Source of the DNA: Escherichia phage naam
Sequence record: MN850630.1
Strand: one strand, 5' to 3'
Length of the DNA: 64,000 nucleotides
Shown here: in pieces, positions 34,798 through 52,322 of the stretch
How positions within the stretch are numbered: the first letter of the stretch is position 1
Layout: each line of letters begins with the position of its first letter
Notes under the pieces: generated by a model
Seen by the model: the letters and a program-made list of their open reading frames with translations, nothing else
The model's database searches: none
Told to the model about the DNA's origin: nothing
Translations under genes and position numbers: made by a program

Positions 34798-35217
34798 ATG
34801 AACATTAAATCTAATAATCCGGCATATAGCTTTGATAACGCTTTTTGTCACGGTCCGGCGGCGAAAGGATTCGAAATCGATGGTAAACTAATTATTGTCA
34901 ATGTTGACGGGGAAGAGGTTGCAGTATATCCGGTGGCAGACGTAAAAAGCCGTTTACAATGCCGCATGGATGTTACCGCCTATCAGCTTGATCCGGTCCG
35001 CATAGTTGCCCTGGTCCTGGAAGAAGAAATTAAAGCCATGCACCATAGCAACAGATTTATTGGTGACGCGCAGGATAATATGAAAGTATGCCGCCATAAA
35101 GTTAATGAAGTGCTTAAAGAGTACGGCTATAAAGATCTTATGATCAAACGTGAGGAAAAATTCCGCTACCGTAACGACCTGGCAAATCGGATTTTTGAAA
35201 TATACGAATCATTATAA
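34798..35217 (+). CDS. hypothetical protein
   Basis: AAGAGG RBS; 139 aa; last gene of the plus-strand block. Confidence 0.6.
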   Translation: MNIKSNNPAYSFDNAFCHGPAAKGFEIDGKLIIVNVDGEEVAVYPVADVKSRLQCRMDVTAYQLDPVRIVALVLEEEIKAMHHSNRFIGDAQDNMKVCRHKVNEVLKEYGYKDLMIKREEKFRYRNDLANRIFEIYESL

Positions 35218-35235
35218 TTTTTTAACTGAATTATC

Positions 35236-35260
35236 AAGGGGCTTAGGCCCCTTTCTTTTT
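35236..35260 (+). terminator. rho-independent terminator ending the plus-strand block
   Basis: Stem aaggggc / gcccctt then TCTTTTTG. Confidence 0.65.
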
Positions 35261-35878
35261 GTCTGCTCTTCCCCCTACCATAAACGGCCCTACCTGGCAA
35301 GTGGAATAATTGACGAGCCATCAATCCTACACACTGTACAAACATACATGTAAAATAGCTATTGCATAACCTTTCATTGTGTGGTAGCGGTGCTATTTTT
35401 TACCAGTTTTCCTTCCAAAATTGCACGTAATGCCGCTATTGCACAAATTTTAACCTGATGCACATCTCCAATATCTTGTCAACAACTAAAAATCTTTATA
35501 AGTCATACACTTACACAGCATCGAAAGCGTGTTCTACGCGAAAAATCGAGTATAACTATAGCCGCCAGATCTCAGAATTCACGTACGCACGCCATTCTAT
35601 AGCCTGCAAAGTATTTATTCCAACCACAGAATAACGGAATAGTCAATACCTGCATAAAATAATTATTAGTGTAAACTGCATAACATAAATCAGCTCAGGT
35701 GTCAACATTTTTCGTAAACAGTCCGAAATTATCACGATGAGTTATCATAAACAGAGAAATCTTTAGTCGTCTAATGTTTACTGTACATTACTATACTGAC
35801 TGGAATCATTAGATGACTAAGAGAAAGATAAGAAATAATTAATAATGTAATTGTTTTACCTGTAACAATAAGGCAACT

Positions 35879-35898
35879 ATGCAAACGAATGGCATGGC
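35879..35898 (+). repeat. 20-bp direct repeat ATGCAAACGAATGGCATGGC, copy 1
   Basis: Exact second copy at 36140..36159. Confidence 0.7.
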
Positions 35899-36015
35899 GC
35901 GACGGAGTCGCGACATAATATAAAAGCAGTAACCATCACCCCCGTGATAGTTTGTCTGCAATCTATTAATCAGATCATAGTTGCCTTGTATTCAGTTAAT
36001 CATGACATGATAAGC

Positions 36016-36047
36016 AAGGCAACTATAGATCTTCTAATAGTTGCCCT
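36016..36047. repeat. palindromic site GGCAACTAT-N10-ATAGTTGCC
   Basis: Further copies of the arm at about 35870 (AAGGCAACTAT) and 35977 (ATAGTTGCCTT); operator-like or iteron-like. Confidence 0.55.
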
Positions 36048-36170
36048 GCTTTTATATTATGTCATAGAAACACCCGAAGGGGTGACCAAAGGTCACCTGG
36101 CATAGCCAGTGAAAGATTATTAACTTGCTAATAGTTATCATGCAAACGAATGGCATGGCTGATTATCGGT

Positions 36171-36257
36171 GTGTAAACAGTCAATCATGTAAATGGTTAG
36201 CATGTGAACAATCAGAAATGTAAACAATCCAGTGTGTAAACTAATAGGTGTGTAAAA
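36171..36257 (+). repeat. cluster of (G)TGTAAAC(A) repeats
   Basis: GTGTAAACAG, ATGTAAACAA, TGTGTAAAC and GTGTAAAAG within 90 bp; further GTAAACAG at about 35714, 36511 and 37221, and on the minus strand at about 36368. Confidence 0.55.
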
Positions 36258-36851
36258 GTGTCATGTTGTGTCAGTTAGGTCACATTATGTCAGACAAGTT
36301 TTTCTCCTCTTTGTCAAGTGCTGCATGAAAAATTTACAAGCTTGTATGGTAGCATTTTTGCGGCCCTGTTTACATTCAGTGTTGTATGTATAATCCTTGT
36401 TGTGTGGGCGTTTAGACGTCTGGACGGTCAGAAGTCTGCAGGTTAATATCTAATCTATCGGCTGCTAACTATATCCCACACAAATAGTAAGAAATATAAT
36501 TGTTATGTGCGTAAACAGTAACCCATGTTATCAATCCCTGTATGTATCGCCAGTGGTGCGCATAATGGGTATTATGTTAAATTGCCCGTAATGATAACAG
36601 TTCTCACAATGATAGGTATTCTCATTCACCCCCACAAGATAGGTTGCAAATGTTGTGCCACTGTGTGAACGGCCTGGCCTATTAATTTGCCTCACTGCCT
36701 TGATATTTGAGAATTATTATAAGAATGAGAAGTATTCCCATTTCGTCCGCCTGGCAGCACTCCTGTAGGTCAGGTCAAAATCGTGGTAGAACTAGACCTA
36801 TCCGGATATTTCTGGCTGACTCTTCAGGTCTGTGTGGGAAAAGCCAACCTC

Positions 36852-36866
36852 TCCGGCGGGGCAGGG
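36852..36866 (+). repeat. 15-bp GC-rich direct repeat TCC(C)GGCGGGGCAGGG, copy 1
   Basis: Second copy at 36999..37015; CTCTTCAGG recurs at about 36820, 36904 and 37351. Confidence 0.5.
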
Positions 36867-37710
36867 GGAGGTCAATTAAAAAATTTACGTGGTGTATGAA
36901 GCGCTCTTCAGGTAAGGCAGGTATTATGGGATGAAACCCGCTTCAGGCAATGATATTTGTGGGTGTGATATTTGCTGGAAGGCCAGATATGACGGGACTC
37001 CCGGCGGGGCAGGGGTAGTACAGACAGGGAAAATATGGGGATGTAGTTGGGGAAATTGATCAGACAGGTAGAGTATGGAATATGTTACAGGTATGTTAAA
37101 TATGGAGGTTGAATATCTGTAGGATTTGTGTGTAAAATCAAAGACTTAAGGGGTGTTGTGGTATTTTCTATAAATAATTCAAGTTTAATAGGCAATATTT
37201 GTCTCTATCCGCTTTGTGTGGTAAACAGATTCAGATGAGATTGGTTTACAAGTGTATACATAATATACAAATTAAAGATACAAGAAACCCCCCTCCCCCT
37301 TCGGCTACCATTCACCTTTTCCTCTGACTGGTACTTAAACACTTATTCAGACTCTTCAGGTTATCACCCATATATCATATGGCAGTGACTGGTGTCCTCC
37401 GGCCCCTCTTTCGTCACCCGTCCGCTTCGCCATGCTAATGCCATAGCTAATGGTTCGGTTGTTCACCCTGTTCACTCAGGTGTATCTCTATACCCCTTCA
37501 AACCGAAGAGAACAGAAAACCCGAATTACTCGGTAAAAGAAAAGAGAAGAACTTAATTTTATCAGGATAGGCAAGAATGTCAAGGCATGACTGCTCACTA
37601 AACAAGCAAACAGTCATGTGTGGGAGGTAAGTGATTGTGGTGGTAGGAAATTTAGTTGAAAGATGTGTTATAGGTGCTTCCAGCACTTTAGCCGGGCAGC
37701 TAATTGTGTG

Positions 37711-37926
37711 TCAGTCCAGCGGTTCATCCTCTACTTCACTGAAATCAATGTTCATGGTCTCTTCCCAACCATCGATCTCAGCACAAGAGTGGAGTTCTTT
37801 AGGGTTTACTCCCAAAGCCTCAGCAACAGAGTCTATATTTAACACCTCTGGCAGGTATGATTCATCGAATTCAAGGTAAATCAGGCCACGAGTGTTGTCA
37901 GCTCCACCAAATATCTCTATCTTCAT
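37711..37926 (-). CDS. small acidic protein (MK[IV][EK] paralog family)
   Basis: MKIEIFGG N-terminus, acidic C-terminus; most downstream gene of the minus-strand block. Confidence 0.55.
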   Translation of the reverse strand: MKIEIFGGADNTRGLIYLEFDESYLPEVLNIDSVAEALGVNPKELHSCAEIDGWEETMNIDFSEVEDEPLD

Positions 37927-38047
37927 AAAATCTCCTCTGGGAATGAGAGTGTGAACAGGGTTTTATACGTTCCAATACGCTGGAATTATGCACGTTTGCC
38001 TCTTCAGGCCATGCTTTAGCATGAGGAACCTGTGTGGGCTCGGTGCT

Positions 38048-38260
38048 TCATAGTCTACCACCTCTGAACTCTTCGTGCTCAGGCATAATAGAGAACCAGA
38101 TATCTACGATGTCCTCCCACGTCAGGTCATCAGCCTCAGGATCTGTCTGGGACGAAGATGAAGAGTCCTCAGAATCTAAGTTTTCCTCTTTAACTGGCTC
38201 ATCCAAGGGACATATGGTCACTCCTTTGGATGTCTCTTCAGATGCATGTGTGTTGATCAT
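38048..38260 (-). CDS. highly acidic small protein
   Basis: 70 aa, strongly D/E/S-rich (DSEDSSSSSQTDPEADD). Confidence 0.5.
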   Translation of the reverse strand: MINTHASEETSKGVTICPLDEPVKEENLDSEDSSSSSQTDPEADDLTWEDIVDIWFSIMPEHEEFRGGRL

Positions 38261-38620
38261 GTCCCACCTGTGAGTATTCCGGCAACAGCCGCTATGGACG
38301 TAATGATCATCAGGATCACCACTAAAACTTCGGACAATGTTCTCATTGTGTATTCCATATTCTACAAACTATGTGTGGATACTATCACGAGAGCGGTAAT
38401 GTGTCAACAGAAACGCCGCGAGGGTTTGGTTAAAATCCGAGCGTATGGTGATTTGGGTCAAAACGGACGTGCGTTCTCGCTACGCTCGAAAGAGAGATTT
38501 GTTTGTAGGAAGCTCTTAAACGCTCTGTAATGAGATTATCTGTCCAAGGTATGCAATCGTGCACCAGATAAAGAAAAGGACGCCACAGAGCGTCCTAGGT
38601 GTCTTAAATTTGATATTTTG

Positions 38621-38932
38621 CTATACCCATGAGGGCTTATCAAGGTTGGAGTAGCTGAAAGGTGTCAAAAGGTGACTGTCAAAATCTCTCAAACTATCTA
38701 AATCTTTTTCCTCGTCCTGACACCATCTGTGCCTACATTTATTGTTGTAGTGCATAGAATGCATAGCGTTCTGCAATTTAACAGGCACAAGTGATTCAGG
38801 AGTAGATAGTATTGTTGGGTATGCCAGAACCACCTCAAACAGTGGAAACACATCGAAACTAAAGTCTACCTCTGCAGAGGTTGATGGCATGTAAGAGTAT
38901 TTAGCCGCCTTTGTAGACATAATCCACCTCAC
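38621..38932 (-). CDS. hypothetical protein
   Basis: 103 aa; ATGA coupling with the upstream gene. Confidence 0.5.
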   Translation of the reverse strand: MRWIMSTKAAKYSYMPSTSAEVDFSFDVFPLFEVVLAYPTILSTPESLVPVKLQNAMHSMHYNNKCRHRWCQDEEKDLDSLRDFDSHLLTPFSYSNLDKPSWV

Positions 38933-39255
38933 ACAGGTTTGATAATACCTTTACCGAATAACTCTTCGTATCTAATCTTATCCGGATCCCACTCCTGGAT
39001 AATTTCGAAGACAATATCCAACCCTGGGATAATCACTTCTCCAGTGTCGAGCTTAGCAAGAACAAAACCGGAAGGTTGAATGGTTTCCCAGTTGCGCCGA
39101 TTGGAATAGAAGACCTCGAAAATATCGCCGACCTTTATCTGTTGATCAAGATGTTCAAGATTCTCTTTCATATAGACGCAGCGGATTTTTCGTGCAGGCC
39201 ATAGACCACCTGCATCACGTTCATTTAGCTCTTTTACAGTAATCGGTATACCCAT
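38929..39255 (-). CDS. hypothetical protein
   Basis: 108 aa. Confidence 0.55.
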   Translation of the reverse strand: MGIPITVKELNERDAGGLWPARKIRCVYMKENLEHLDQQIKVGDIFEVFYSNRRNWETIQPSGFVLAKLDTGEVIIPGLDIVFEIIQEWDPDKIRYEELFGKGIIKPV

Positions 39256-39310
39256 CTCAAATCTCCTTCATAGATAGTAAAAAGAGGGGCCCAAGCCCCC
39301 CTCTTTGTCA

Positions 39311-39616
39311 TTATTCTACAGAGCGTTTGAACAGAATGTCTGCCTCAGACATGTGCTCAACCTCTTCTTCGATTTTAGCGCGACGTTTTTCAGCCTCATA
39401 GCGGATATCGAACTCGGTAGCCACCAGAGATTTGATGAATTTAGGAGAATACAGGTGATCCTGCTTCTCAACGAGAATGATATCCTTAATGGCATCTTTC
39501 AGATCTTTAATCTGAAGTTGGAGTTCCACCAGTTCTTCGATTGTTTTGCGAAGGCGATCACGCTCTGCAGTGTCAGAAGGAAGAGAGGTGAACAGTTCAA
39601 CTTTAGATTTAGCCAT
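39311..39616 (-). CDS. hypothetical coiled-coil protein
   Basis: AAGGAGAC RBS; 101 aa. Confidence 0.55.
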   Translation of the reverse strand: MAKSKVELFTSLPSDTAERDRLRKTIEELVELQLQIKDLKDAIKDIILVEKQDHLYSPKFIKSLVATEFDIRYEAEKRRAKIEEEVEHMSEADILFKRSVE

Positions 39617-39644
39617 AGTAAGAGTCTCCTTATGTTGTTTTAAA

Positions 39645-39896
39645 TTAGCGTTCTACAAAAATACCGTTCAGTTCAATAACCAGGAATTTCTGGTCTTCAC
39701 TATCGTCTCGTGCCAGCACCTCACAGACGTATCGGTCATCCCCATCATCATCGCAGTCAAATACAAGACTGAGGACTTTATCATTATAAACCTTCGCCAC
39801 TACCGCCTCGTAAGTATTGCCGATTGTGAATCCAAGATAATCTCCGATGCATTTGACAACAACATGGTCGCCAGCATTCAAGTCAATCTTCGTCAT
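39645..39896 (-). CDS. small acidic protein
   Basis: ATG after AAGGAG (track ORF 39645..39962); acidic DCDDDGDD stretch. Confidence 0.5.
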   Translation of the reverse strand: MTKIDLNAGDHVVVKCIGDYLGFTIGNTYEAVVAKVYNDKVLSLVFDCDDDGDDRYVCEVLARDDSEDQKFLVIELNGIFVER

Positions 39897-40051
39897 TACT
39901 GCGCTCCTTGGGTAATAATACTGTATGTAAAACTTTAACCAGAGATGTGAATAACGCCCCAAAACACACCGATAGCGCTAAAACAGACAAGGCCATCATC
40001 AAAGCTTCAGTAAAATCAGTCATTCCTCACCTCTTGTTAGTCACTATACTA

Positions 40052-40315
40052 TCATTTATCCTTGCCGTCAAGAACTTTTTTAAATCTTTCAGGGATATCC
40101 CCCGTTCTTAGATAGTTCATGACCTCACAAGGTTCCCACTTGAATTTCTTACAGAGCAGGGCGGCTGAGATTGTTTCATTGCGAAAAGAAAGGATATTAA
40201 TATCCCACTCTGAGAACCCCAACTTCCGAAGGGTAGCTACAGAAATCCTCACCGCAACCCAGCAGCAAAAACATGCAACAAACGCCACTGCTACAACCCA
40301 CATCAGGATGTTCAT
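40052..40315 (-). CDS. hypothetical membrane protein
   Basis: N-terminal helix ILMWVVAVAFVACFCCWVAV; 87 aa. Confidence 0.5.
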   Translation of the reverse strand: MNILMWVVAVAFVACFCCWVAVRISVATLRKLGFSEWDINILSFRNETISAALLCKKFKWEPCEVMNYLRTGDIPERFKKVLDGKDK

Positions 40316-40404
40316 ATAAGCACCTTACTGAAATACAAGACACAGTGTTAAGGTTACTGACCAGCAAATAATTAGCAGGACCATTGCAACCTTGGCAAGA
40401 TTTA

Positions 40405-40692
40405 TCATAGTGCCTCTAAGATTTCATATCCTTCAGGTCGAAATACAAGCCACTCCGTGGCTCCGTTTGGTCGATACGCTTTATACAGAACAACCTGATC
40501 TCGGCACATGCACATGGCTACATAGTTTTCATCCACACCTGCAGCCTGCATTGCATCTTCTTCTCCGGCAACTGCTTTGCTTACAACTTCCTTGGTAGGC
40601 AGGTGTGCGATCAGCTCGTCACCATCATTAATTCCAAAATGACTGAGTTCTCCATTGGTATCTTTAATCTTAATCTTAACCAGATCTTTCAT
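40405..40692 (-). CDS. small acidic protein (paralog family)
   Basis: MKDLVKIKIKD start; 95 aa. Confidence 0.55.
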   Translation of the reverse strand: MKDLVKIKIKDTNGELSHFGINDGDELIAHLPTKEVVSKAVAGEEDAMQAAGVDENYVAMCMCRDQVVLYKAYRPNGATEWLVFRPEGYEILEAL

Positions 40693-41021
40693 TAGTCTTT
40701 CTCCAGGTTCAAAGGTCCTAAGATTTCATATGCCAGATTAGAAGTTACCAGAGGGTCTTCTGCATCTTTAGTATTGTACCACCCGTGAATAACCAGAGTC
40801 CCACTTTGTTTCATATCCAACTGGAACTGTTCTGCAGTTTCCTCATCCATCTCTAAGATCTCCATGAGGTATTTGATGTTAGGAAGGTATGCAGCTGTTA
40901 CAGTTCCCTCTACCAAACCTTCGGGCCAACCTACATCCGGATGACAAGTAGGAACCAGATTAGTCAGCTTAATAGTGTACGCTTTTTCTGCACGAGCCTT
41001 CAGTAACGGGTCAATCTTCAT
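40692..41021 (-). CDS. small acidic protein
   Basis: 109 aa; coupled start. Confidence 0.55.
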   Translation of the reverse strand: MKIDPLLKARAEKAYTIKLTNLVPTCHPDVGWPEGLVEGTVTAAYLPNIKYLMEILEMDEETAEQFQLDMKQSGTLVIHGWYNTKDAEDPLVTSNLAYEILGPLNLEKD

Positions 41022-41371
41022 TATTCGTCCTCCTCTTCGGTGCCTGCTTCCAGTAATAAGTTAAGAATATCTTCTGCACAAGGTTCATAGAACTCTTGGC
41101 CTTCATTATCGATGATTTTGTAGTCATCTCCACGAATAATCAGGGGATCACTCTCAAAATTATCGAGACCTTTAACAACGACAACACGATCGATTGCCAT
41201 CATTGTAAGAACTTTATCGACATCTTCCTCTGCTACACCATACTGCAGCAGAATGTCTTTGGTAGGAGGAACAGCATCCACCACAACGCCGTTACCAAAA
41301 CCTTCTGGGAGTTTAGCTAAAATATCTTCCGGAACCACATTCACATCAAAACCGGTAATTTCTACTTTCAT
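41021..41371 (-). CDS. small acidic protein (paralog family)
   Basis: MKVEITGFD start; VVVVKGLDNFES core; acidic tail EEEDE. Confidence 0.55.
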   Translation of the reverse strand: MKVEITGFDVNVVPEDILAKLPEGFGNGVVVDAVPPTKDILLQYGVAEEDVDKVLTMMAIDRVVVVKGLDNFESDPLIIRGDDYKIIDNEGQEFYEPCAEDILNLLLEAGTEEEDE

Positions 41372-41632
41372 TTACAGCACCTCTTCGTCAACTACTTCAT
41401 AAAAATGGCCTGGGATTGCAATAGCGTTCTCACCTTCACCTACAAACACAGTTCCGTCAAGAATCAACATCATAAGAATTTCTGTAATATCCTCTTCCGG
41501 AACGTTGCCAAAACCTTTAATCAGCTCGTAGGTTGGAATATTTACCTCTAAGATGTCACCATCTTTAGAACGGAAATCAACACCGTCCTGAATCTCTGCC
41601 GTTTCAAGGTTTTTCAATTTAATCTTCATCAA
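41372..41632 (-). CDS. small acidic protein (paralog family)
   Basis: MMKIKLKNL start; ends VVDEEVL. Confidence 0.55.
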   Translation of the reverse strand: MMKIKLKNLETAEIQDGVDFRSKDGDILEVNIPTYELIKGFGNVPEEDITEILMMLILDGTVFVGEGENAIAIPGHFYEVVDEEVL

Positions 41633-41708
41633 TCGGTCTCCTGTCTTGTTAAGATGAAGGTATTATTTCACACAGGGTTGGCGTTGTCAACACCTGTGTG
41701 CAAGAAAA

Positions 41709-42104
41709 TTACTGAAACAGTGCGGATAAATTACCTTCTGGTGGGAACTTATCTGCCAAAAACGGTGTTAGCACAGTAGCCTTCTGAAGATCTGGGGTCC
41801 ACTCGTTGTTCAGAACATCCCAGTAGTACGCAATGTTGCTGTGTGGGTGCCGCATTACGAACTTTTTTCCTTCGTAGTCATCTGAAACCTCTACAGAAGA
41901 AATAACAACAGAATCTTCAAGGGTTTCTTCATAGAAAGATCCGCCTTCAAATTTCCAACGAGATGCAAGAGCCCCTGCCTTGAACGCTGCAGATAACGGA
42001 CTGTCGGCAAGAACATACATTTCTTGCACTCTGTCGCTGCGATCTTTGCTTCTTACGTTGTATACAGTATCTGAGCTATACTCAACACGGTATAGGCTTA
42101 CCAT
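41709..42104 (-). CDS. hypothetical protein (paralog of 43911..44309)
   Basis: Shares HP.S...YW......WTP with 43911..44309. Confidence 0.55.
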   Translation of the reverse strand: MVSLYRVEYSSDTVYNVRSKDRSDRVQEMYVLADSPLSAAFKAGALASRWKFEGGSFYEETLEDSVVISSVEVSDDYEGKKFVMRHPHSNIAYYWDVLNNEWTPDLQKATVLTPFLADKFPPEGNLSALFQ

Positions 42105-42436
42105 TACCGCACCTCCTCAATAACTTCCACATCTGAACCTACCACAAATGCAAAAGGACAGGTTTCATGAAAGACATCCGGATCGCCGCCAAGCTTGCTA
42201 ACAATCTCTCCACCACTAATAAACACAAGCTCACCGATATTCATCAGATTGCTGAAATAGTACCCATAATGATTAAAGAATGCAGCAGGGTCAGGTAGAC
42301 TAGTAGCCTCAAGCACTACATCAGTTGAGGTTACTTTCTTATCATAACCTCTCGCCTTTTGAGATGCAAGATCTGCAGAATCCTCAGGCGACCGGAGATG
42401 CACAGGAATTGTTTCACCAATAAAGCGTACTTTCAT
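42104..42436 (-). CDS. small acidic protein (paralog family)
   Basis: ATG (MKVRFIGE) after GGTGA, clear of the upstream gene (track ORF 42104..42463); ends VEVIEEVR. Confidence 0.5.
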   Translation of the reverse strand: MKVRFIGETIPVHLRSPEDSADLASQKARGYDKKVTSTDVVLEATSLPDPAAFFNHYGYYFSNLMNIGELVFISGGEIVSKLGGDPDVFHETCPFAFVVGSDVEVIEEVR

Positions 42437-42440
42437 ATTA

Positions 42441-42704
42441 TCACCCAACAACCATAGCTTCAAAAGGGGTCATGAACGAATAAACGGCATCATCATCTGC
42501 TTCAGGGAATGCTCCCAAAGACTTCATGTCTGAGCCCTTGACAAATACAAGGTTTTGATCAAAAGCTTCTTGAGGATCAATCCGATACATATTTCGTAGA
42601 ATATCGCCTACCTCCTCATCAAGAGGTGAGTATGCTGTGCACGTTTTTCCGATCAAGCTTTGAGAATCAGGGTATCCACCTGAAGTTTTAAAATAAACAA
42701 TCAT
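42441..42704 (-). CDS. small acidic protein (paralog family)
   Basis: LVFVKGSDMKSLGA core. Confidence 0.55.
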   Translation of the reverse strand: MIVYFKTSGGYPDSQSLIGKTCTAYSPLDEEVGDILRNMYRIDPQEAFDQNLVFVKGSDMKSLGAFPEADDDAVYSFMTPFEAMVVG

Positions 42705-42795
42705 ATAGTATCACCTCTGGTAAGAGATTGGGATTCCTTTCCCACAAATAATTACAAACCTTCCTTATCGAGGAAGTATGCTAATCCAAGCAGGA

Positions 42796-43065
42796 TTATT
42801 CCTCTACAATCTCATACACATCCGGAGTTACAATCAACTCTTCTCCGTTACCCGGTGCAACAAACACCACCATGCCTTCAGGTGTGTGCTTTTTAGCCAT
42901 CTCGATAACATCTTCTCGCAGAGCTGGCTCCATCAGATCAAAACCTTCACCCAGGGCATCACGAACCACCTTCATATAGTCAACTGGTTGTGCTTCGACA
43001 ATCATACCTTCAACCAGTTCACAGTTTTTGTCTGCCAGCTCAGTTTTGAATAATTTAATTTTCAT
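42796..43065 (-). CDS. small acidic protein (paralog family)
   Basis: MKIKLFKTE start; ends VYEIVEE. Confidence 0.55.
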   Translation of the reverse strand: MKIKLFKTELADKNCELVEGMIVEAQPVDYMKVVRDALGEGFDLMEPALREDVIEMAKKHTPEGMVVFVAPGNGEELIVTPDVYEIVEE

Positions 43066-43202
43066 TTAGAGGTCTCCTCAATTATTTGATATTAATAGCC
43101 GTAACCTAACACATTAACTACAACTGCGATTGCAAACATAATTTCAAAGCATGCAATCTCTACATTTGGGACTAATTTCTTGATCACACCCATTGTAGCA
43201 CC

Positions 43203-43520
43203 TCATTCTCTAAAGTCAATCTTTACTTTGCCTTTCCCCTTACCTTTCTTTCCACCGCATTTAGCCAGTTGACGTGCTGCAACATCTACCATACGGTCAG
43301 TTGCCTCGTAAGCATCACTGCCTTTAGCTTTGGCAATAACTTCTTTTCCAGAATTGTCAAAAATGAACGCCATAACTTCCTGGTGATCATTTTCAACTTT
43401 TACACTCACACGTGCATAGTTGGCAGAGGGATGCAAACGCTCCAGCTTAGACATTTTGTGGGAAATGAAAGACACCATACCTTCAGTGATTTCTACGTTG
43501 CCAGTGATTTCAATTTGCAT
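43203..43520 (-). CDS. hpf: ribosome hibernation promoting factor / RaiA-like protein
   Basis: MQIEITGNVEITEG...KLE...VKVE...AKGSDAYEATD...ARQLAK parallels E. coli HPF (MQLNITG.NVEIT...KLE...KVEK...AEGQDMYAAID...ARQLTK); 105 aa. Confidence 0.75.
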   Translation of the reverse strand: MQIEITGNVEITEGMVSFISHKMSKLERLHPSANYARVSVKVENDHQEVMAFIFDNSGKEVIAKAKGSDAYEATDRMVDVAARQLAKCGGKKGKGKGKVKIDFRE

Positions 43521-43567
43521 AACGTGTTCCTTTTAAAGAAGAGGGAACCAAACCCTCTTTGAAAACA

Positions 43568-43596
43568 ATGATACTAAATCTGAAGCGTTGTGTCAA
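43568..43596 (-). promoter_or_regulatory. sigma70-like promoter upstream of the hpf-like gene
   Basis: Minus strand TTGACA, 17-bp spacer, TATCAT; leader hairpin AAGAGGG...CCCTCTT before the RBS. Confidence 0.55.
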
Positions 43597-43602
43597 CAGT
43601 TT

Positions 43603-43893
43603 TTACAGATTGTTGTCGATAGTTTTTAAAATATCCACAGCAAGATCTGCCATTTTTCGAACATACTCTGCAAACTCAACAGGATCCTTGATCAAAGAAT
43701 TCACAGGGTCGTACCCTAGAGCGTTCAAAATGGCTGCAGCATCTACAACCTTCTCATCATTTGCGAAGATCTCTCCATCAAACTTGTAGGTCCATTTTGA
43801 GTCAATCTTGGCAGGGAATGATTGGTCAACGCTTGTTACACCATCCTTTTTAAACGCTCCGGTGTTATCAGTGTCTAGAACTAAATCCATCAT
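43603..43893 (-). CDS. hypothetical protein
   Basis: 96 aa. Confidence 0.55.
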   Translation of the reverse strand: MMDLVLDTDNTGAFKKDGVTSVDQSFPAKIDSKWTYKFDGEIFANDEKVVDAAAILNALGYDPVNSLIKDPVEFAEYVRKMADLAVDILKTIDNNL

Positions 43894-43910
43894 GTTAGTA
43901 CCTCACCGTT

Positions 43911-44309
43911 TCAGTTTAGCTTTTCTTCAACAACCCCATAGCTCGGGACAGAGTCAAGAGCTTTCTGGTTTAAAAGTGGTGTAGCAGAATCTGCAAACGG
44001 TGTCCAAGTTTTTGTTCTGGCATTCCAGTAATGCTTCACTCTGGAATCTGGATGCACTATAACAAAAACTTTTTCACTTGTCAACACATTAATTTCTTCT
44101 ACACCCTTGCTGATAATTTCTCCGTCATAGCCACCAGTCTGGTATCCTTCGTACCAGGTTCTTGCATATGCATAGCCAGCCTGCCAGCATGCAGCCTCCT
44201 CCGAGGTGGAGACTACGTAGAAGTCTTTCTCAAATTCTGGGATACGCCCTTGCTTTACGCTCCAAGCTCCGCGAATTTTCATTGTAACTTTGAACAGTTT
44301 ATTTTTCAC
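43911..44309 (-). CDS. hypothetical protein (paralog of 41709..42104)
   Basis: HPDSRVKHYWNARTKTWTP motif. Confidence 0.55.
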   Translation of the reverse strand: MKNKLFKVTMKIRGAWSVKQGRIPEFEKDFYVVSTSEEAACWQAGYAYARTWYEGYQTGGYDGEIISKGVEEINVLTSEKVFVIVHPDSRVKHYWNARTKTWTPFADSATPLLNQKALDSVPSYGVVEEKLN

Positions 44310-44321
44310 AACGGTTACCCA

Positions 44322-44576
44322 TCACAGCTCTACAATCTCTGCATCTGACCCTGCCCCAAAGGCATAATAGGATTCTTCCCCGAAATAATATTCCGGTGCA
44401 CCAGCAGCGATCAGGTCTGATCCCAAGATAAACACCACGTTGTGGCCTACATAACTGTGATGTTGCCGCACAGGATCATCCCACGGCAACCCTTCAAAGT
44501 ATACCGCAGGAACGACCTTTCCCTTCAGGAAGGATTGTCCCAAGTAGACGTTAGAATCAAGAATTTTAACCTTCAT
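44322..44576 (-). CDS. small acidic protein (paralog family)
   Basis: MKVKILDSNVYLGQ start; VFILGSDLIAAGA core. Confidence 0.55.
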   Translation of the reverse strand: MKVKILDSNVYLGQSFLKGKVVPAVYFEGLPWDDPVRQHHSYVGHNVVFILGSDLIAAGAPEYYFGEESYYAFGAGSDAEIVEL

Positions 44577-44793
44577 TCTCGTCCTCCACTATCTCTACAT
44601 CCTCACCAAGGGCAAAGTTGTAGGTCCACTGGCTGTCAAAGCAGTCCTGAGATGCACCAGCGGAAATAAGATCTGCACCTTTTATTTTTAAAAGGTCAGG
44701 ATAATCTTCGTTAGGGATAGCGGTAAACACTTTCCCCACTAAGGGCTCCTGACCAATATAGAAGCTTGAATCTAAAACTTTAACTTTCATCAA
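44566..44793 (-). CDS. small acidic protein (paralog family)
   Basis: MMKVKVLDSSFYIGQ start; LKIKGADLISAGA core; ends EIVEDENEG. Confidence 0.55.
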   Translation of the reverse strand: MMKVKVLDSSFYIGQEPLVGKVFTAIPNEDYPDLLKIKGADLISAGASQDCFDSQWTYNFALGEDVEIVEDENEG

Positions 44794-45077
44794 CGGTCTC
44801 CCTCAGGCGGTTGTGGGACGTAAACACTGTTACGAATATCGTCAGCAGTGTAGTAATAAGTGGTTCCAACCCTATCTCGGGCTGCAATGTACTCTGCTAT
44901 ACCAATAAGTGCCATTGATTTGGTGGCGTATCTTCCCCACTCGTTAGCTCCCCAGTAGAATTTAGACCAGTAGGGAATAATACCGAACAAATATACCTTT
45001 TGACGAACTTCCCAGTAAGTGCCTTTTCCGACAAGTTTAAACTCTACTTCACCACTGTTAATCTTTTTCATTATCAA
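44790..45077 (-). CDS. hypothetical protein
   Basis: 95 aa; ATGA coupling. Confidence 0.5.
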   Translation of the reverse strand: MIMKKINSGEVEFKLVGKGTYWEVRQKVYLFGIIPYWSKFYWGANEWGRYATKSMALIGIAEYIAARDRVGTTYYYTADDIRNSVYVPQPPEGDR

Positions 45078-45370
45078 TCTCCCTCTACCGTGGTCGGATT
45101 GTCAGTAAGAAATTGAGCATTGGCTGGAGGCACGCCTGACATTTTCCACACAACCATAAGTTTGTAACCAGGAACTCTATTAAGTGCAGATCGAGTAGAG
45201 TTTGTGCACGTATACTTTCGCTTTCCAAACCCGTTCTCCATCATAATCCAGTACCCAGTATCTTTGTCACCAGGTATCGGTAGACCACCTTCATCAACCC
45301 ACTGAATGGACCACGGCACGATGGCTACAGCTTTATATTTAAACTTTTTAAACCACTCAAAAAGTTTCAT
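45074..45370 (-). CDS. hypothetical protein
   Basis: 98 aa. Confidence 0.5.
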   Translation of the reverse strand: MKLFEWFKKFKYKAVAIVPWSIQWVDEGGLPIPGDKDTGYWIMMENGFGKRKYTCTNSTRSALNRVPGYKLMVVWKMSGVPPANAQFLTDNPTTVEGD

Positions 45371-45465
45371 AATTCAGCCTCGCATAGACATAATCACTAT
45401 AAACAGGCAAACAATGAATCCGAATGCCACGCCACCCATAAACGTTAATATTGATGCAATCATAG

Positions 45466-45651
45466 TCAATCAGCCTCGCTTGGCAACTCTTCTACCTTAA
45501 CATGCCGAAAAGTGTTACCGTAATGGTTGATCCATGACATCAGCTCGCTTTCTTGCTCTTCCTCTGGGATGAACTCTCGAATGCTGACAAGTTTTAAGAA
45601 AACCCAATCACAATCTGCACCCATTCTACCAGACAGGCAATAGTGCTTCAT
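45466..45651 (-). CDS. hypothetical protein
   Basis: ATG after GGCGGGGG (track ORF 45466..45726). Confidence 0.4.
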   Translation of the reverse strand: MKHYCLSGRMGADCDWVFLKLVSIREFIPEEEQESELMSWINHYGNTFRHVKVEELPSEAD

Positions 45652-45667
45652 AAAACCCCCGCCTGGT

Positions 45668-45862
45668 TTAGAATATTGCTTCTTCCATTGCACCTGAGAG
45701 CAACAAAGAGGTGATCTGGCTAACATTCATCTCAGACTCTACTTCCTCCCCTTTGAAAGGTTCGCGGCAGAATAGGACTGTTTCAGGACTTTTACTTCGA
45801 ACAATATAATACAAATCATTCAATGTGTTGTAGTAATAAGTGTTAAAACGTAAGTTTTTCAT
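45668..45862 (-). CDS. hypothetical protein
   Basis: 64 aa. Confidence 0.45.
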   Translation of the reverse strand: MKNLRFNTYYYNTLNDLYYIVRSKSPETVLFCREPFKGEEVESEMNVSQITSLLLSGAMEEAIF

Positions 45863-46146
45863 TTTCTAGTCCCCTTCTTAGATTTTTGTGTAGAAACGCT
45901 TTCTGCAATACGAGACAAACGTTCTTCTGAAGCCTTGCCTATTCCAGGTTTTTTGAGTGGGTTATCTTTATGACCACAATCCAATTGGATATTGGATACC
46001 TCTCCAACCTTGTAAGTCAATTCTAGCAAAAGGTTGTCGTCCTTGTCAAATGTTCTTACGATAAATTTTTTATCGTTCTCCTGAACTTCGTATCGGGTAC
46101 CCGCAGTATACAGCATGGTGCCATCCGCATAGGATATCCAGATCAT
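45859..46146 (-). CDS. hypothetical protein
   Basis: 95 aa; coupled. Confidence 0.5.
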   Translation of the reverse strand: MIWISYADGTMLYTAGTRYEVQENDKKFIVRTFDKDDNLLLELTYKVGEVSNIQLDCGHKDNPLKKPGIGKASEERLSRIAESVSTQKSKKGTRK

Positions 46147-46490
46147 TGAACCTCCTTCTGCTGCAACAGCATTAACTCTTTGTTGGAGATTTTTACTGCT
46201 GTTTTTATTGTTCCATCTTCACGAAACCACGACCAGAACTCTACAGTGTCCCCACTGTCAAGCAAAGCATACCCGTGGTAGAAGTCTTTGTCCTTAGACA
46301 GTTTCTCATCTATGTCTGCATCGACACATTCGTGATCCATAGCATTTTGCCTGAATGCATCGGTTATACCAATGCACGCCTTGCTCTCAAGACTGGTATA
46401 TCCGATATCTTTTAATTCAGTTTCCCAAGTCCAGTACCCTATAAAAGCTAAAACAGCTACCCACATTAATAACGTTTTAATCTTTGGCAT
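46143..46490 (-). CDS. hypothetical protein with N-terminal signal or membrane anchor
   Basis: MPKIKTLLMWVAVLAFIGYWTW start. Confidence 0.5.
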   Translation of the reverse strand: MPKIKTLLMWVAVLAFIGYWTWETELKDIGYTSLESKACIGITDAFRQNAMDHECVDADIDEKLSKDKDFYHGYALLDSGDTVEFWSWFREDGTIKTAVKISNKELMLLQQKEVQ

Positions 46491-46552
46491 TCTCTCTACC
46501 TCTTTCTTAGTTTATTTCACTATGGCACATCCTTTGTGCCATATCTCAACCA

Positions 46553-47014
46553 CTACTTAAATAGTAGTCCAAAATAGTGCAAAATTAACAGAAGTTGAAC
46601 TACACCTAGTGCAACGGCGAGTATGTTAATCTTAGAATCGAAAAACTTCTTAACTTTTACTCTAAAAGGTTCCTTAATGTCCTTTACGATCCTATTTATA
46701 GATGATTTCATATCCCTGATTACCATCCTAAACATTAGAGACGGATCTTCCTTCTCTGTAATAGAATCGAAAACATACTCTCTTCGGTCATAAGGACCTC
46801 CAGATCTGCGTATTAACCTCTCCACAGAGACCTCGTACGACACACCTGTAACGTAATCATCTATGATAAGTAGTGACGGGTCTTTATCGTCCAAGGGTAT
46901 TAAAGTTATCTTTCCAGATTTTGTTAAAATTTCTCCTTTTTCAAGCAAGGTGTACCAATGCTCTCTACCAAGATTGTTGAGGCACGTTTTTACATATTTA
47001 ACAAACATCGTCAC
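46553..47014 (-). CDS. hypothetical protein with C-terminal membrane helix
   Basis: C-terminal INILAVALGVVQLLLILHYFGLLF; 153 aa. Confidence 0.5.
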   Translation of the reverse strand: MTMFVKYVKTCLNNLGREHWYTLLEKGEILTKSGKITLIPLDDKDPSLLIIDDYVTGVSYEVSVERLIRRSGGPYDRREYVFDSITEKEDPSLMFRMVIRDMKSSINRIVKDIKEPFRVKVKKFFDSKINILAVALGVVQLLLILHYFGLLFK

Positions 47015-47214
47015 CCCTCATCGCACGTCTGATATAACCACTCTATGAAATCTTGATACCATTCGCCCTCTGAGCGCTCCGTAGGCCAATAATCTTCACC
47101 CTCTCGTGCATTAAAATCTGAGTATTCAACTTTCCACTCCTTTACCAGCTCGTGGAGAAGGTTTTCAGCCTGCTCTAAAGATTTATTTTTTGCCATTGCT
47201 GTCTCCTTTTTCAA
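47011..47214 (-). CDS. hypothetical protein
   Basis: Internal ATG at 47196 after AAAAAGGAGA is a likely alternative start. Confidence 0.5.
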   Translation of the reverse strand: MKKETAMAKNKSLEQAENLLHELVKEWKVEYSDFNAREGEDYWPTERSEGEWYQDFIEWLYQTCDEG

Positions 47215-47415
47215 GATAGTTATACATCAGAACTGCACCACCTAAGATGGCTACCAGTAACAATATCCCAGATAGCATCTCAATAAACATGGCTTGAAAC
47301 ACTGGAAGGTCTCCCTAAATTAACGCACCATTTTAAATACATGCTCTTTTCCCATAAAGGTGCCTGGCTAAGATCTGCGTAGAACGCAATCTCTTTAAGA
47401 ACAGTATAGATAGTT

Positions 47416-47643
47416 TTAGGTGCGGTCTCCATCCCTACTCTCCTTCCTGATATTCTTGTAGTAATCAACTAGGCACATTATTACGATGAAGATAACAACA
47501 GGCCAAAAAGGTGCAGCAGTGATGATGGTGATAAAATCATCAAACTTCACCCTTCGTCTGGACACGATGCATACACCTGTCAAGAATACCGCTGTTATAA
47601 CGGACATTACCAGGTAACCTATTAGCACAACATTTATACTCAT
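47416..47643 (-). CDS. hypothetical membrane protein
   Basis: Two hydrophobic helices; 75 aa. Confidence 0.5.
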   Translation of the reverse strand: MSINVVLIGYLVMSVITAVFLTGVCIVSRRRVKFDDFITIITAAPFWPVVIFIVIMCLVDYYKNIRKESRDGDRT

Positions 47644-47673
47644 TGGTCCTCCCTTTGTAGGTTAAATTGTATA

Positions 47674-48207
47674 CTACAAATGGTCGCTGAGGGTGTCAAG
47701 AAAATTATCCCGTTCTTTCTCAGAGTTTTCATGTGTGTAGCTGAAAAACATATCGAGAATAACCTTATTGATATATTCCAGCTCCTCTGTGTTCAGATGC
47801 TTAGCAGGATCTACAATGACATCCCAAATATCATACAGACCACACTCATGATACCCATAACGCCACTCAATTGTCAAGCTGAGCGGCAAATCTTTACCTT
47901 CACAAACAACCTTCCATCTACATATGTTGGTATCTGGTCGTACCTGTGCACGGTACACCTGCACAAAATCCAATTTGAATTTGAGGTACTCGTCATACAA
48001 TTTAAGCACAAAGCTCTCGATTTGTGGAGACACTTTTGCAGCAAACTGTGCGTATTTGTACTTGCACTGGATGATCTTTCTGCGTTTTGCAGTTAAATTT
48101 TTTGCCGCCAGTTGTTCTTCAGTGTATCTCCACCTACGATCAACAAACGCAACAGGGTCTTTGTCCCCATAGAGGTCTTCCCAGTTAATCAGAAGCATAC
48201 CTGTCAC
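47674..48207 (-). CDS. hypothetical protein
   Basis: 177 aa. Confidence 0.55.
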   Translation of the reverse strand: MTGMLLINWEDLYGDKDPVAFVDRRWRYTEEQLAAKNLTAKRRKIIQCKYKYAQFAAKVSPQIESFVLKLYDEYLKFKLDFVQVYRAQVRPDTNICRWKVVCEGKDLPLSLTIEWRYGYHECGLYDIWDVIVDPAKHLNTEELEYINKVILDMFFSYTHENSEKERDNFLDTLSDHL

Positions 48208-48437
48208 TCCTCCACAACTTCAAGGCCTTTACCGCCTCGCTCTGGCAGATTACTTAAAGATAGGTAATACATATAATCAGGAGAGATCCTGCCAGACTCT
48301 GCACCTGCAGCTAGTAAATCCTTCCCTTTAACCAGGACAACATTCTCGTTTGCAGATAGCCGTTTTGCTTCCACAATTTTACCGACACAGTCAACCAAGG
48401 AAGGGTACCCTAAATCTGTAAGAAATTTAACTTTCAT
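48204..48437 (-). CDS. small acidic protein (paralog family)
   Basis: MKVKFLTDLGYP start; LVKGKDLLAAGA core; ends LEVVEE. Confidence 0.55.
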   Translation of the reverse strand: MKVKFLTDLGYPSLVDCVGKIVEAKRLSANENVVLVKGKDLLAAGAESGRISPDYMYYLSLSNLPERGGKGLEVVEE

Positions 48438-50010: not shown

Positions 50011-51060
50011 TTAAGCTTCTTCGACAATTCCTGCACCCAGGATTTTTTCATTGAGCTCTTTTGCTGTTTTAATAATATTGTCCACAAGACGCTTGCGAGT
50101 CTTATCTTTCACCTTAACCTCTTCACCGCCGTTCAGAGTAGTCTTCAATTGAGACAGAATATCCTGAAGTTCAACGACAGAGAATCTCTGCAGATCTTCT
50201 GAAGTAATCTCACCCAGGGCAATTCGGACGGTCTCGCCACTTTCCATCTGCAGATTCAGGAACACAGTGTGAACATCACCTTTCGAACCACCCGCTTTTG
50301 CAGATTCAACAGCATGAACTAACTCATCTAAAGATGTGCACTGATGAATCTCCGGAAGACCTGCTTCACCTAACACGCCTTCTTCATCACCTTTTGCCAG
50401 AAGCTTTTTCGGTTTTTGTCCGTTCTGGATGCGTTGTATGTTGCCTTCATCCAGAATAATAGCTCCAGTGCGTGCTGCCAACTCTTCTCCGTCCAACCAC
50501 ACTTCGCCACCAGCTGTGATGGATGCGATCTCATCTTCTGTCAGCACCCCACCGTAGTATTTTTCGATCAGGTGTTCAAAACGTTTTTTCCAGTAGCTGA
50601 CCTGAGTATTCATGTTAACACCGTTACCATAAGTGCCACCTTGATAGTAGTGGAACATAAATTCTGTGTCCGGAGCCACAGTACGTTCTTTGCAACCAAG
50701 CCATAAGATTGTTCCAGCAGAGCAGCACATCCCTTCAGCATGTGCAACAACGCTTGCCTGAGACTCGCGGAATGCCTGCAGATAGGCCATTGCAATGTGC
50801 ACGCAACCACCAGGGCTATTGATGATCACACGAATGCTTTCTTCCGGCTGCGCCATACGGATCGTCTGCAGACGAGACATATGATCCTGCAGGTCCTCCA
50901 AATCGTCGATATAAAGAACGTGGTCAACAACAGGTGTTGGGTAGCTGTATGTTTCCATGATACCGCCCGGCATACCAAACATTTTATTACTCATAGGTTC
51001 GAAACCGTTCTGTTTTTCTTTCATGCCGTGTACCATGGTGCTGCGAGGTGTTAAATTCAT
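50011..51060 (-). CDS. ClpP-like serine peptidase (S14 family) with N- and C-terminal extensions
   Basis: VIINSPGG (ClpP INSPGG), catalytic Ser context GMCCSAG, His context FMFHYYQGG; 349 aa against about 200 for canonical ClpP. Confidence 0.7.
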   Translation of the reverse strand: MNLTPRSTMVHGMKEKQNGFEPMSNKMFGMPGGIMETYSYPTPVVDHVLYIDDLEDLQDHMSRLQTIRMAQPEESIRVIINSPGGCVHIAMAYLQAFRESQASVVAHAEGMCCSAGTILWLGCKERTVAPDTEFMFHYYQGGTYGNGVNMNTQVSYWKKRFEHLIEKYYGGVLTEDEIASITAGGEVWLDGEELAARTGAIILDEGNIQRIQNGQKPKKLLAKGDEEGVLGEAGLPEIHQCTSLDELVHAVESAKAGGSKGDVHTVFLNLQMESGETVRIALGEITSEDLQRFSVVELQDILSQLKTTLNGGEEVKVKDKTRKRLVDNIIKTAKELNEKILGAGIVEEA

Positions 51061-51120
51061 GAGAAATCCTTAATATTGGAAGTTGAAAGCTATTTATTTA
51101 AACCTGATTCACATTTACCT

Positions 51121-51432
51121 TTATTTAGCAATCACTATGGAGTACTTACGATTGTCAGAAGCATCACAACTCAATGATTGCCAATCTACCACATACCACG
51201 TATCATTGTCAACAATTACTTTATCGCCTGTTCTGTAGCAAGTGCTGCTTTCAATAATTCGAGACTCGATAAAGAATCTGTGTCGGCGCTCACGTAGCAA
51301 CGCTAAGTTGATTATATTACCACCGCTGTCCTTGGTCCACACATTCTTGGATCCTTTATTTGCCAAAATTGTCTCACCGTTATAGACAAATAGGCAGTAT
51401 ATTTTATTCAGTTTCTCTTGTATTGTAGCCAT
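51121..51432 (-). CDS. hypothetical protein
   Basis: ATG after AGAAGGA, preceded by a minus-strand TTGACA-17-TATTAT promoter (track ORF 51121..51555). Confidence 0.5.
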   Translation of the reverse strand: MATIQEKLNKIYCLFVYNGETILANKGSKNVWTKDSGGNIINLALLRERRHRFFIESRIIESSTCYRTGDKVIVDNDTWYVVDWQSLSCDASDNRKYSIVIAK

Positions 51433-51533
51433 ACTGTCCTTCTCTTTGTTTTGTCCGATAATAATATCTAAAGCTTGCCTATTTGTCAACAACTGTTTTA
51501 GATATTTAAGGGTGGAATAACCACCCTTCTGTA

Positions 51534-52322
51534 TTACTCGGAAACAGGGGTCCAAATATGATTTGCACGATCCTCAATAAGATTGAGTGCGATTTGACGA
51601 CCCAACCCGGAACGAACGACATCGTCTGGACTATCAAAGCTGATCATTCCAACCTCAGGATCTGGATGACGAGTAAAGAAATCCGTCACCCATGCAAGGC
51701 CAGATTTACCAGGGATGTCACGTTGGCTATTATCACCCATAATTACAAGGGTGGCTTGATCAGAGATCCTTGTGATAATTGACAACATTTCTTCAGGGTT
51801 AGTTTGCTGTGCCTCGTCAATCAGGACAAAGCATCGCTCATCGAAACTACGACCACGAATGCTTTCAACTTCACAAATCTCGATACGACTGTTCTGACCG
51901 TCTCCCAGCATTGCGGCAAAAGCACCTTTGCCAACACGACGACAAATCGTGTCCATCATGCTTCGAAGATAGGGCCACAGTTTCTGCATTGCATTTCCTG
52001 GTTTAAATCCTGAAGTCTTTCCTGTCTGGACGTAAGGACGTGCAACAATGATCTTATCAATCTCGTTCTTACGCAGAAGATCACCTGCATATGCAGATGC
52101 CATAAATGTCTTACCGGATCCAAACACACCGTTTACAATAATAATCTTACGTGACCCTAGATAATCAAGATACTTTTGCTGCTTCTTATTCATTGGTCGG
52201 AGAGCTGGAGCGGTGTGCTCTCTTTCGTCAGCAAATTTCTCAGCAGCCTTACGCAGGCGATCAGATTTGCGAGCCTCTCTAGCTTCATCACGCATGCGTT
52301 TTGTTTCTTTAGCTCGACCCAT
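51534..52322 (-). CDS. phoH: PhoH-like ATPase
   Basis: Walker A VNGVFGSGKTFMA, Walker B FVLIDEAQ, later VIMGDNSQRD; 262 aa. Confidence 0.85.
   Translation of the reverse strand: MGRAKETKRMRDEAREARKSDRLRKAAEKFADEREHTAPALRPMNKKQQKYLDYLGSRKIIIVNGVFGSGKTFMASAYAGDLLRKNEIDKIIVARPYVQTGKTSGFKPGNAMQKLWPYLRSMMDTICRRVGKGAFAAMLGDGQNSRIEICEVESIRGRSFDERCFVLIDEAQQTNPEEMLSIITRISDQATLVIMGDNSQRDIPGKSGLAWVTDFFTRHPDPEVGMISFDSPDDVVRSGLGRQIALNLIEDRANHIWTPVSE

Follow-up and report, generated by a model that had tools for sequence, protein, structure and literature searches.

Do the small, acidic proteins encoded close together on the minus strand of Escherichia phage naam belong to one large, fast-diversifying family, and what might such proteins do for the phage? 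The question is raised by positions 37,711 to 48,437 of a 64,000-nucleotide stretch of this genome (sequence record MN850630.1), referred to here as the window, which is DNA of an rV5-like Vequintavirus, a myovirus. In the original prediction, made from the sequence alone, the region was read as a tandem array of at least ten consecutive, early-region paralogs encoding host-takeover or anti-defence factors under diversifying selection, with a further pair of related genes among them. We find that the block carries three independent paralog sets, namely family A with five copies, family B with five copies, and pair C with two. The open reading frames (ORFs) and the motifs quoted for them are all present on the minus strand of the region, including LVKGKDLLAAGA, LKIKGADLISAGA, VFILGSDLIAAGA, VFVKGSDMKSLGA, VVVKGLDNFES, and HP.S...YW......WTP.

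The three sets emerge from an all-versus-all comparison of the 35 minus-strand genes of the block (595 pairs). Searches with phmmer/BLASTP and Smith-Waterman alignments calibrated by 300 shuffles per pair agree on the same clusters. Shuffle p values span 5e-15 to 4e-4 within A (48204, 44566, 44322, 42441, and 42104) and reach 7e-11 for C (43911 and 41709). Within B (41372, 41021, 40405, 42796, and 40692) they range from 3e-5 to 2e-3, and the five best remaining pairs of the 595 all fall inside this set. From the calibrated pair tests and the phmmer/BLASTP clusters, the similarity therefore exceeds what composition alone would give, and the proposed paralogy holds. Searches of Pfam, NCBIfam, and PDB sequences returned no match for family A and no informative match for any of the block families.

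The single family of at least ten members does not survive these comparisons, as a profile hidden Markov model (HMM) of family A matches five A ORFs only, and HMMs of family B never retrieve A genes. Nor are the genes consecutive, since ten unrelated genes separate 48204 from 44566, and further genes, among them one for a ribosome hibernation factor, break up the rest of the series. Nine of the listed members fall into A or B, 37711 falls into neither, and 40692 was overlooked despite being a B member. The shared termini lose their value as family signatures for two reasons. A start of the form MK[VI][KE][IFL] is uninformative where MK begins 16 of the 35 block genes and even the hibernation factor begins MQIEIT. 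The EIVEE-like end coincides, in six of the ten family genes, with terminal Glu-Glu codons (GAGGAG and similar) that form the Shine-Dalgarno site of the overlapping or abutting downstream gene, and such coupled-translation signals can mimic protein-level C-terminal motifs. The acidity is genuine, with isoelectric points (pI) of 4.05-4.7 for the family proteins and 48204 as the exception at pI 5.4; it is also common in many unrelated neighbouring proteins.

Family A is the most sharply delimited of the sets. A deep HMM built from 45 sequences and run on the 1126 six-frame ORFs of the window matches exactly five of them, with expectation values (E) of 5e-30 to 3e-14, and the next ORF follows at E 1.1. 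The same five genes, and no others, match in the complete 137-kb genome of phage RudolfGeigy. All five lie on the minus strand. The gene at 48204..48437 encodes 77 amino acids (HMM E 1e-23; PHROG 5009 E 8e-36). The next members are 44566..44790 (74 amino acids from ATG; HMM E 5e-30; PHROG 5009 E 1e-36) and 44322..44576, whose 84 residues include an insertion between strands 2 and 3 (HMM E 3e-24; PHROG 5009 E 4e-32). The gene at 42441..42704 encodes 87 amino acids and also carries an insertion (HMM E 1.5e-17; PHROG 5009 E 1e-4; own family PHROG 13920), and 42104..42436 encodes 110 amino acids with N-terminal and internal insertions (HMM E 3e-14; phmmer E 2e-5 against 44566; own family PHROG 13661). 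Their consensus reads MKVKLLNDGGY..M..VGKVVEA...I.G.DLI.AGA...F...Y.F..G.E.EIVEE. In alignments of 36-45 sequences, the conserved elements are Y11, GK(V/I)V.A, G.DL(I/L).(A/L)GA, Y.F, and a terminal strand E(I/V)(V/I)E; they are degenerate in 42104 (GGEIVSKLGG).

An AlphaFold2 model of family A, calculated for 48204 from 11 sequences only, has a predicted local distance difference test score (pLDDT) of 94.8 and contains five strands and two short helices. Family A is thus predicted to be a compact SH3-like β-barrel of about 70 amino acids. Small barrels of this type, such as eukaryotic SH3, the KOW domains of Spt5 and L24, the PhnA C-terminal domain, and OapB, are among the closest known systems. 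When searched against viral models with Foldseek, the A model retrieves only uncharacterised phage proteins, from RB49, Sf20, SRT8, VpV262, and others. PHROG 5009, with its weak relatives PHROG 8603 and 13367, is a phage family without annotation that 48204, 44566, and 44322 match over their full length (E 1e-32 to 1e-36) and 42441 more weakly, and 42104 is not joined to it. The wider membership of family A, its fold, and its multi-copy habit are derived in the present analysis.

The five copies in the block do not cluster together. The protein encoded by 48204 scores 66 and 53 bits against the lambdoid-type proteins P0040 and P0035 and about 17 bits against its best paralog in the genome. Because 48204 is nearer to genes of lambdoid prophages than to its genome-mates, the A copies are not the product of a recent burst. 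Only the adjacent genes 44566 and 44322, which are 41% identical, look like a local tandem duplication. These two genes share a 9-nucleotide stretch, GCTGGTGCA, at the GADLIAAGA motif, which provides microhomology. Hybrid A genes are found in the public assemblies P0014 and P0028, with the junction exactly at this conserved motif; one joins the N-terminal half of 44566 to the C-terminal half of 44322, and another joins a lambdoid-type N-terminal half to the C-terminal half of 44566. Occasional recombination at the GADLIAAGA motif gives rise to such hybrids.

Beyond rV5-like phages, family A was picked up by profile search. A word-indexed search returned essentially rV5-like proteins only; an HMMER profile run exhaustively against 1.84 billion representative proteins (cut-off E<=1e-3) returned 38 representatives, nearly all of them full-length proteins of 63-87 amino acids. 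Their surroundings are varied. In Vibrio phage CHOED, an A member directly follows DNA polymerase I, and in a 42.5-kb phage one adjoins a Prim-Pol primase. In the T7-like contig L015, an A member lies between a DnaB-type helicase and DNA polymerase A, among small class-II-like genes, and one further contig places it with Ter-family genes. In lambdoid E. coli prophages, the A gene sits in the stretch of small genes that leads from the Q antiterminator to the holin; the lambdoid prophage scanned has one copy. HMM scans of the loci revealed two copies in CHOED, two adjacent copies in L003, two in L006, and two to three in L015, and tandem A domains occur within single polypeptides, with three repeats in P0046 and two in P0052. 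Taken from these sequence matches, family A appears sporadically in many unrelated phages, lytic and temperate, and tends to be multiplied, either as adjacent genes or as two to three repeats per polypeptide.

One locus of CHOED (L002, 7557-8216) contains an ORF annotated as 'HNH endonuclease', with HNH_3 and helix-turn-helix domains, that continues in frame into a complete A domain, and a second A gene follows directly. We considered a functional HNH-A fusion and set it aside in favour of an in-frame read-through annotation, which is more likely given that the A domain has an MQVKL start of its own within the ORF. The ORF is probably a homing endonuclease inserted upstream of an A gene.

The coherence of family B was assessed by leaving out one paralog at a time. 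Each HMM was built from the other four ortholog groups, divergent orthologs included, and run on the same 1126 ORFs; in five of five tests the omitted gene was the top non-training ORF, with E 6e-11 to 4e-5. No A gene was retrieved from the window ORFs by these HMMs, nor was 37711. The members, again all on the minus strand, are 42796..43065 (89 amino acids; leave-one-out E 3.6e-5; shuffle p 4e-4 against 41372), 41372..41629 (85 amino acids; E 3.8e-6), 41021..41371 (116 amino acids with an acidic C-terminal extension; E 5.9e-11; phmmer E 1e-5 against 41372), the overlooked 40692..41021 (109 amino acids; E 4.2e-6), and 40405..40692 (95 amino acids; E 2.1e-6). Together with the shuffle test, these retrievals show a common ancestry of the five B genes. 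PHROGs keep them separate, as PHROG 11868, 12359, 12155, 12457, and 12794 each match one B gene over its full length, and homolog searches with the family found rV5-like orthologs only. The AlphaFold2 model of 41372 (pLDDT 86.5) places two helices between strands 1-2 and strands 3-5, so that family B is predicted to be a β/α domain of roughly 85-115 amino acids. The sole strong Foldseek match of this model is an uncharacterised protein of Vibrio phage Vc1 (E 3e-5).

Could A and B nevertheless be branches of one superfamily? On this account, A and B, perhaps together with 37711, are a single diverged group of at least ten tandem-duplicated genes under diversifying selection for anti-defence or host takeover. 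Profile-profile comparison with hhalign gives a probability of 1.2% (P 0.045) for shallow A against shallow B, 12.5% (P 0.0023) for deep A against B, and 6% (P 0.006) for the insertion-bearing A subset against B. When B is enriched with divergent orthologs, deep A and the insertion-bearing subset reach 3-8% (P 0.005-0.015). The alignments are colinear from end to end (P 0.002-0.015), and the insertion in 42441, 42104, and 44322, between strands 2 and 3, sits where B has its two helices. Because of this colinearity and the position of the insertions, a distant homology between A and B is possible. The two families are also equal in size and acidity and are interleaved along the block in the order B-A-A-C-B-B-B-B. 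Against this stand the low hhalign probabilities (3-12%) and the matches of profiles to individual genes of the other family, which cover mostly the first 6-8 residues, where the shared start is as trivial as the Glu-Glu codons at the other end. The A and B HMMs never retrieve each other, and no A protein is among the Foldseek matches of the B model, with no cross-hit between the families. A merger of A and B was therefore rejected, as the profile comparisons were never significant and no reciprocal HMM matches exist.

The superfamily account further requires diversifying selection, which the orthologs do not display. Pooled, gene-wide ratios of nonsynonymous to synonymous change (pN/pS), calculated against rV5, Pr121LW, CM1, and EduardKellenberger, are 0.08-0.22 for A and 0.07-0.33 for B, similar to the 0.00-0.46 of neighbouring genes for which all orthologs were compared. 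These values indicate purifying selection on the orthologs of both families. Amino acid identity among Vequintavirus genomes is 88-100%, except for 41372 in phiWec189 (52%, an allelic replacement); 42796 has a divergent allele in P0121/P0122 (56%). These divergent alleles in a few strains speak for the superfamily account, yet the low pN/pS values and the one-to-one orthology described next speak against it, and overall we consider a single diversifying superfamily unlikely.

The copy number of five A and five B genes is the same in rV5, Pr121LW, CM1, phiWec189, and L022, a divergent 128-kb metagenomic contig. In L022, where orthologs are 29-87% identical, all five A and all five B genes are kept one-to-one and in the same order, along with one C gene. 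Individual genes are nonetheless lost. A deletion of about 3.7 kb in EduardKellenberger, a viable phage of the BASEL study, removes twelve genes including 44566 and 44322, and the 40405 ortholog is frameshifted, and thereby split, in the rV5 reference. At least part of the set is dispensable. Taken together, the pN/pS values, the one-to-one set of L022, the loss in EduardKellenberger, the frameshift in rV5, and the hybrid genes lead us to view the paralogs as old (25-41% identical to each other), subfunctionalised, individually conserved, and non-essential, and not as a diversifying array. At the deletion site of EduardKellenberger (L011, 10240-10707), the 47674 ortholog ('putative glycosidase') contributes its first ~133 codons and the 43911 ortholog its last ~25 codons to a fused gene.

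Pair C was recognised correctly in the original prediction by its HP.S...YW......WTP motif. It consists of 43911..44309 (minus strand; 132 amino acids from GTG, with a shorter start in some records) and 41709..42104 (minus strand; 131 amino acids), which match each other with phmmer E 3e-11 and both belong to PHROG 7379 (E 2e-66 for 41709). The gene order A-A-C occurs twice, as 44566-44322-43911 and as 42441-42104-41709. Single-sequence searches hint at a similarity to ubiquitin-conjugating E2 enzymes over HP...W(T/S)P (E 0.4-0.8). This identity was rejected because the four-sequence profile search is negative and the catalytic cysteine is absent, with no Cys between HP and WTP; there is no Pfam match either. 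The protein encoded by 41709 is at least 97.7% identical in all 118 matching rV5-like records and at least 99% identical in 105 of them. Its partner 43911 is lost in EduardKellenberger and absent from L022.

The genomic setting bears on when these genes may be expressed. The 10.7-kb region aligns over its full length with more than 100 Escherichia phages of the genus Vequintavirus at 97-99% identity, the top matches being vb_EcoM_bov10K2 and RudolfGeigy (99.0%). In the RudolfGeigy annotation, every gene of the block is a 'hypothetical protein' except the ribosome hibernation factor and the 'putative glycosidase'. The paralog block lies at the far end of a long transcription unit that runs leftward; this unit starts near the RNA ligase gene, passes genes for DNA ligase, exonucleases, thymidylate synthase, ribonucleotide reductases, PhoH, ClpP, and a methyltransferase, and stops at 37711, before an ORF-free stretch of 2.5 kb. 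We postulate that the region represents the promoter-distal, small-gene end of an early/middle leftward transcription unit.

The 12 best sigma70-like matches in the region all lie on the minus strand. An intergenic promoter-like site at 41690-41662 (minus strand; 11 of 12 consensus positions plus an extended -10 element) is located upstream of 41372 and thus of four consecutive B genes, and equals P150 annotated in rV5. Another intergenic site at 43596-43568 (minus strand; 11 of 12 consensus positions), upstream of the hibernation factor gene and the downstream B-A-A-C genes, equals P144. Host-type promoters are described along the whole genome in the rV5 paper, in which the paralogs go unmentioned (PMC3606486). 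Since the sigma70-like sites coincide with annotated rV5 promoters and host-type promoters are reported for that phage, early expression of the block is plausible. Detection in virions has been reported only for the ortholog of 46553. Of the proposed early-region multigene set, the placement of small acidic proteins in a non-structural region with host sigma70-type promoters stands, and the notion of one large family falls.

What, then, might the proteins do? The reading that we favour, and regard as somewhat probable, holds that the block contains three old paralog sets of conserved accessory genes whose products bind host or phage proteins. The A and B proteins would be cytoplasmic, non-enzymatic, single-domain binders. 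Each paralog would probably have its own partner among host or phage proteins, bind it stoichiometrically, and act as an accessory module for host interaction, takeover, or counter-defence. With one target per paralog, such a model would explain why all copies are retained and why the phage still survives on a laboratory host when some are missing. T7 Ocr, Gp2, and Gp5.9 and T4 Arn are comparable to the families in size, acidity, non-essentiality, and early/middle position under host RNA polymerase; they differ in having no sequence or detected fold similarity to A or B. These T7 and T4 proteins are single-copy.

Several points weigh against this binder model. It is drawn only from size, predicted fold, acidity, and context, and the one-to-one retention and purifying selection are also compatible with a role inside the phage's own machinery. 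Distant A members are found in dissimilar surroundings, some in replication modules by DNA polymerase, primase, or helicase genes and one in the late accessory region from Q to holin, and therefore they define no single expression class and no conserved partner gene. As to timing, a literature search found no transcriptome for the genus Vequintavirus.

A narrower version would make each paralog a dedicated counter-defence inhibitor, such as an acidic decoy or DNA mimic, directed at a different bacterial immune protein. Many anti-defence proteins, such as Ocr, Gp5.9, and anti-CRISPRs, are small, acidic, non-essential accessory proteins, and the block genes share these traits. The distribution of family A points the same way, with its lambdoid members at the 'moron' site, an accessory position flanked by Q and holin, its place among small class-II-like genes by the polymerase and helicase genes of the T7-like contig, and its multiple copies in several lineages. 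This account is weakened by orthologs that bear no arms-race signature and by the finding of the BASEL study that Vequintavirinae are exceptionally susceptible to restriction-modification systems (PMC8594841). Given that sensitivity, a general anti-restriction role for the families is unlikely. A literature search on the PHROG and gene names and on Vequintavirus anti-defence returned nothing relevant, and we rate dedicated counter-defence as doubtful.

A phage-internal function is a serious alternative, if an improbable one. Here, instead of acting on the host, the proteins would serve the machinery of replication, nucleotide metabolism, or translation control as small subunits of the adaptor or chaperone kind, possibly as hetero-oligomers. 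Such a role would suit the distant A members directly beside DNA polymerase, primase, or helicase genes, the position of the block after the ribonucleotide reductase, thymidylate synthase, PhoH, and ClpP genes, the hibernation factor gene within it, and the strict purifying conservation. The tandem-domain fusions P0046 and P0052 likewise suggest a domain that acts in multiples. It fits poorly with the absence of two A genes from a viable phage, with the lambdoid copy in a late region, and with the lack of any partner gene conserved across contexts.

More speculatively, multiplicity itself could be the key to family A. It would then be an undescribed modular phage 'binder' domain that depends on paralog hetero-oligomers or multivalent tandem repeats, and the block of five A, five B, and two C genes, in which the order A-A-C recurs, would work as a coordinated arsenal, with a separate paralog for every host sensor or enzyme to be disabled. 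We give this idea only a slim chance; if true, lytic and temperate phages would share a new type of counter-defence or takeover locus made up of multiple paralogs.

Under the favoured reading of conserved accessory binders, the block exemplifies something well known from large lytic phages, small accessory proteins that come as paralogs, and the idea of a fast-evolving arms-race array gives way to that of ordinary accessory genes. Ten block genes reduce to two domain families, and the aspect of real interest would be a phage-wide, predicted SH3-like domain that is spread over unrelated lytic and temperate phages and has been multiplied repeatedly. Phages of the rV5 type are among the commonest E. 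coli phage isolates and are used in biocontrol and therapy cocktails, yet the annotation of this block is wholly hypothetical. The families are good candidates for host-interaction screens and offer two compact, well-modelled targets for interaction and anti-defence assays, for which RudolfGeigy (five A copies) and EduardKellenberger (three A copies) form a natural comparison pair within BASEL.

Several neighbouring features accompany the paralogs. The ribosome hibernation factor, a RaiA/HPF homolog (Pfam PF02482, 48 bits), is encoded at 43203-43520 on the minus strand, in the middle of the paralog block. The gene has its own strong sigma70-like promoter (43596-43568, described above) and is 98-100% conserved among rV5-like phages. 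A 101-amino-acid putative transcriptional regulator (39311-39616, minus strand; PHROG 639) does not differ among the six Vequintavirus genomes that were compared (100% identity, pN = 0) and retains 86% identity in L022. Directly behind its gene, at 39281-39306, lies a GC-rich terminator hairpin that is strong and bidirectional. Mosaicism within the block is greatest in the 64-amino-acid gene at 45668-45862 (minus strand), which occurs as two very different alleles among genomes that are ~95% identical, with 68-70% amino acid identity in rV5 and Pr121LW and a pS of 0.62.

At the end of the leftward unit lies the small acidic ORF 37711..37926 (minus strand), listed in the original prediction as a family member. 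Membership of A, B, or C was rejected, as its best pairwise p is 0.0135, the B HMM gives E 0.38, and the hhalign match covers the first 6-8 residues only. The ORF-free stretch beyond it (~35180-37710, 2.5 kb) separates convergent gene blocks and is the box labelled 'non-coding' in the rV5 paper. Within it, ATAGTTGCC(C/T)TG recurs several times, in direct and inverted orientation, and there is an 18-nucleotide perfect inverted repeat (35912/36046); the stretch is located at the cumulative GC-skew maximum. A search of this stretch against Rfam gave no match, and it may serve as an origin or have some other cis-acting role.

Two observations concern the wider group of genomes. Eighteen GenBank records that carry the name 'Campylobacter phage', with C. 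jejuni as host, match this region of an E. coli phage at 90-99% identity and are probably mislabelled or contaminant rV5-like genomes. Outside the window, RudolfGeigy carries at 51028-52052 (L019, 4029-5053) a run of four consecutive genes for proteins of 77-87 amino acids, two of them clear paralogs (E 1e-10) and the others weakly linked (E 0.002-0.006); because of this second run, tandem small-protein families appear to be recurrent in this type of phage.

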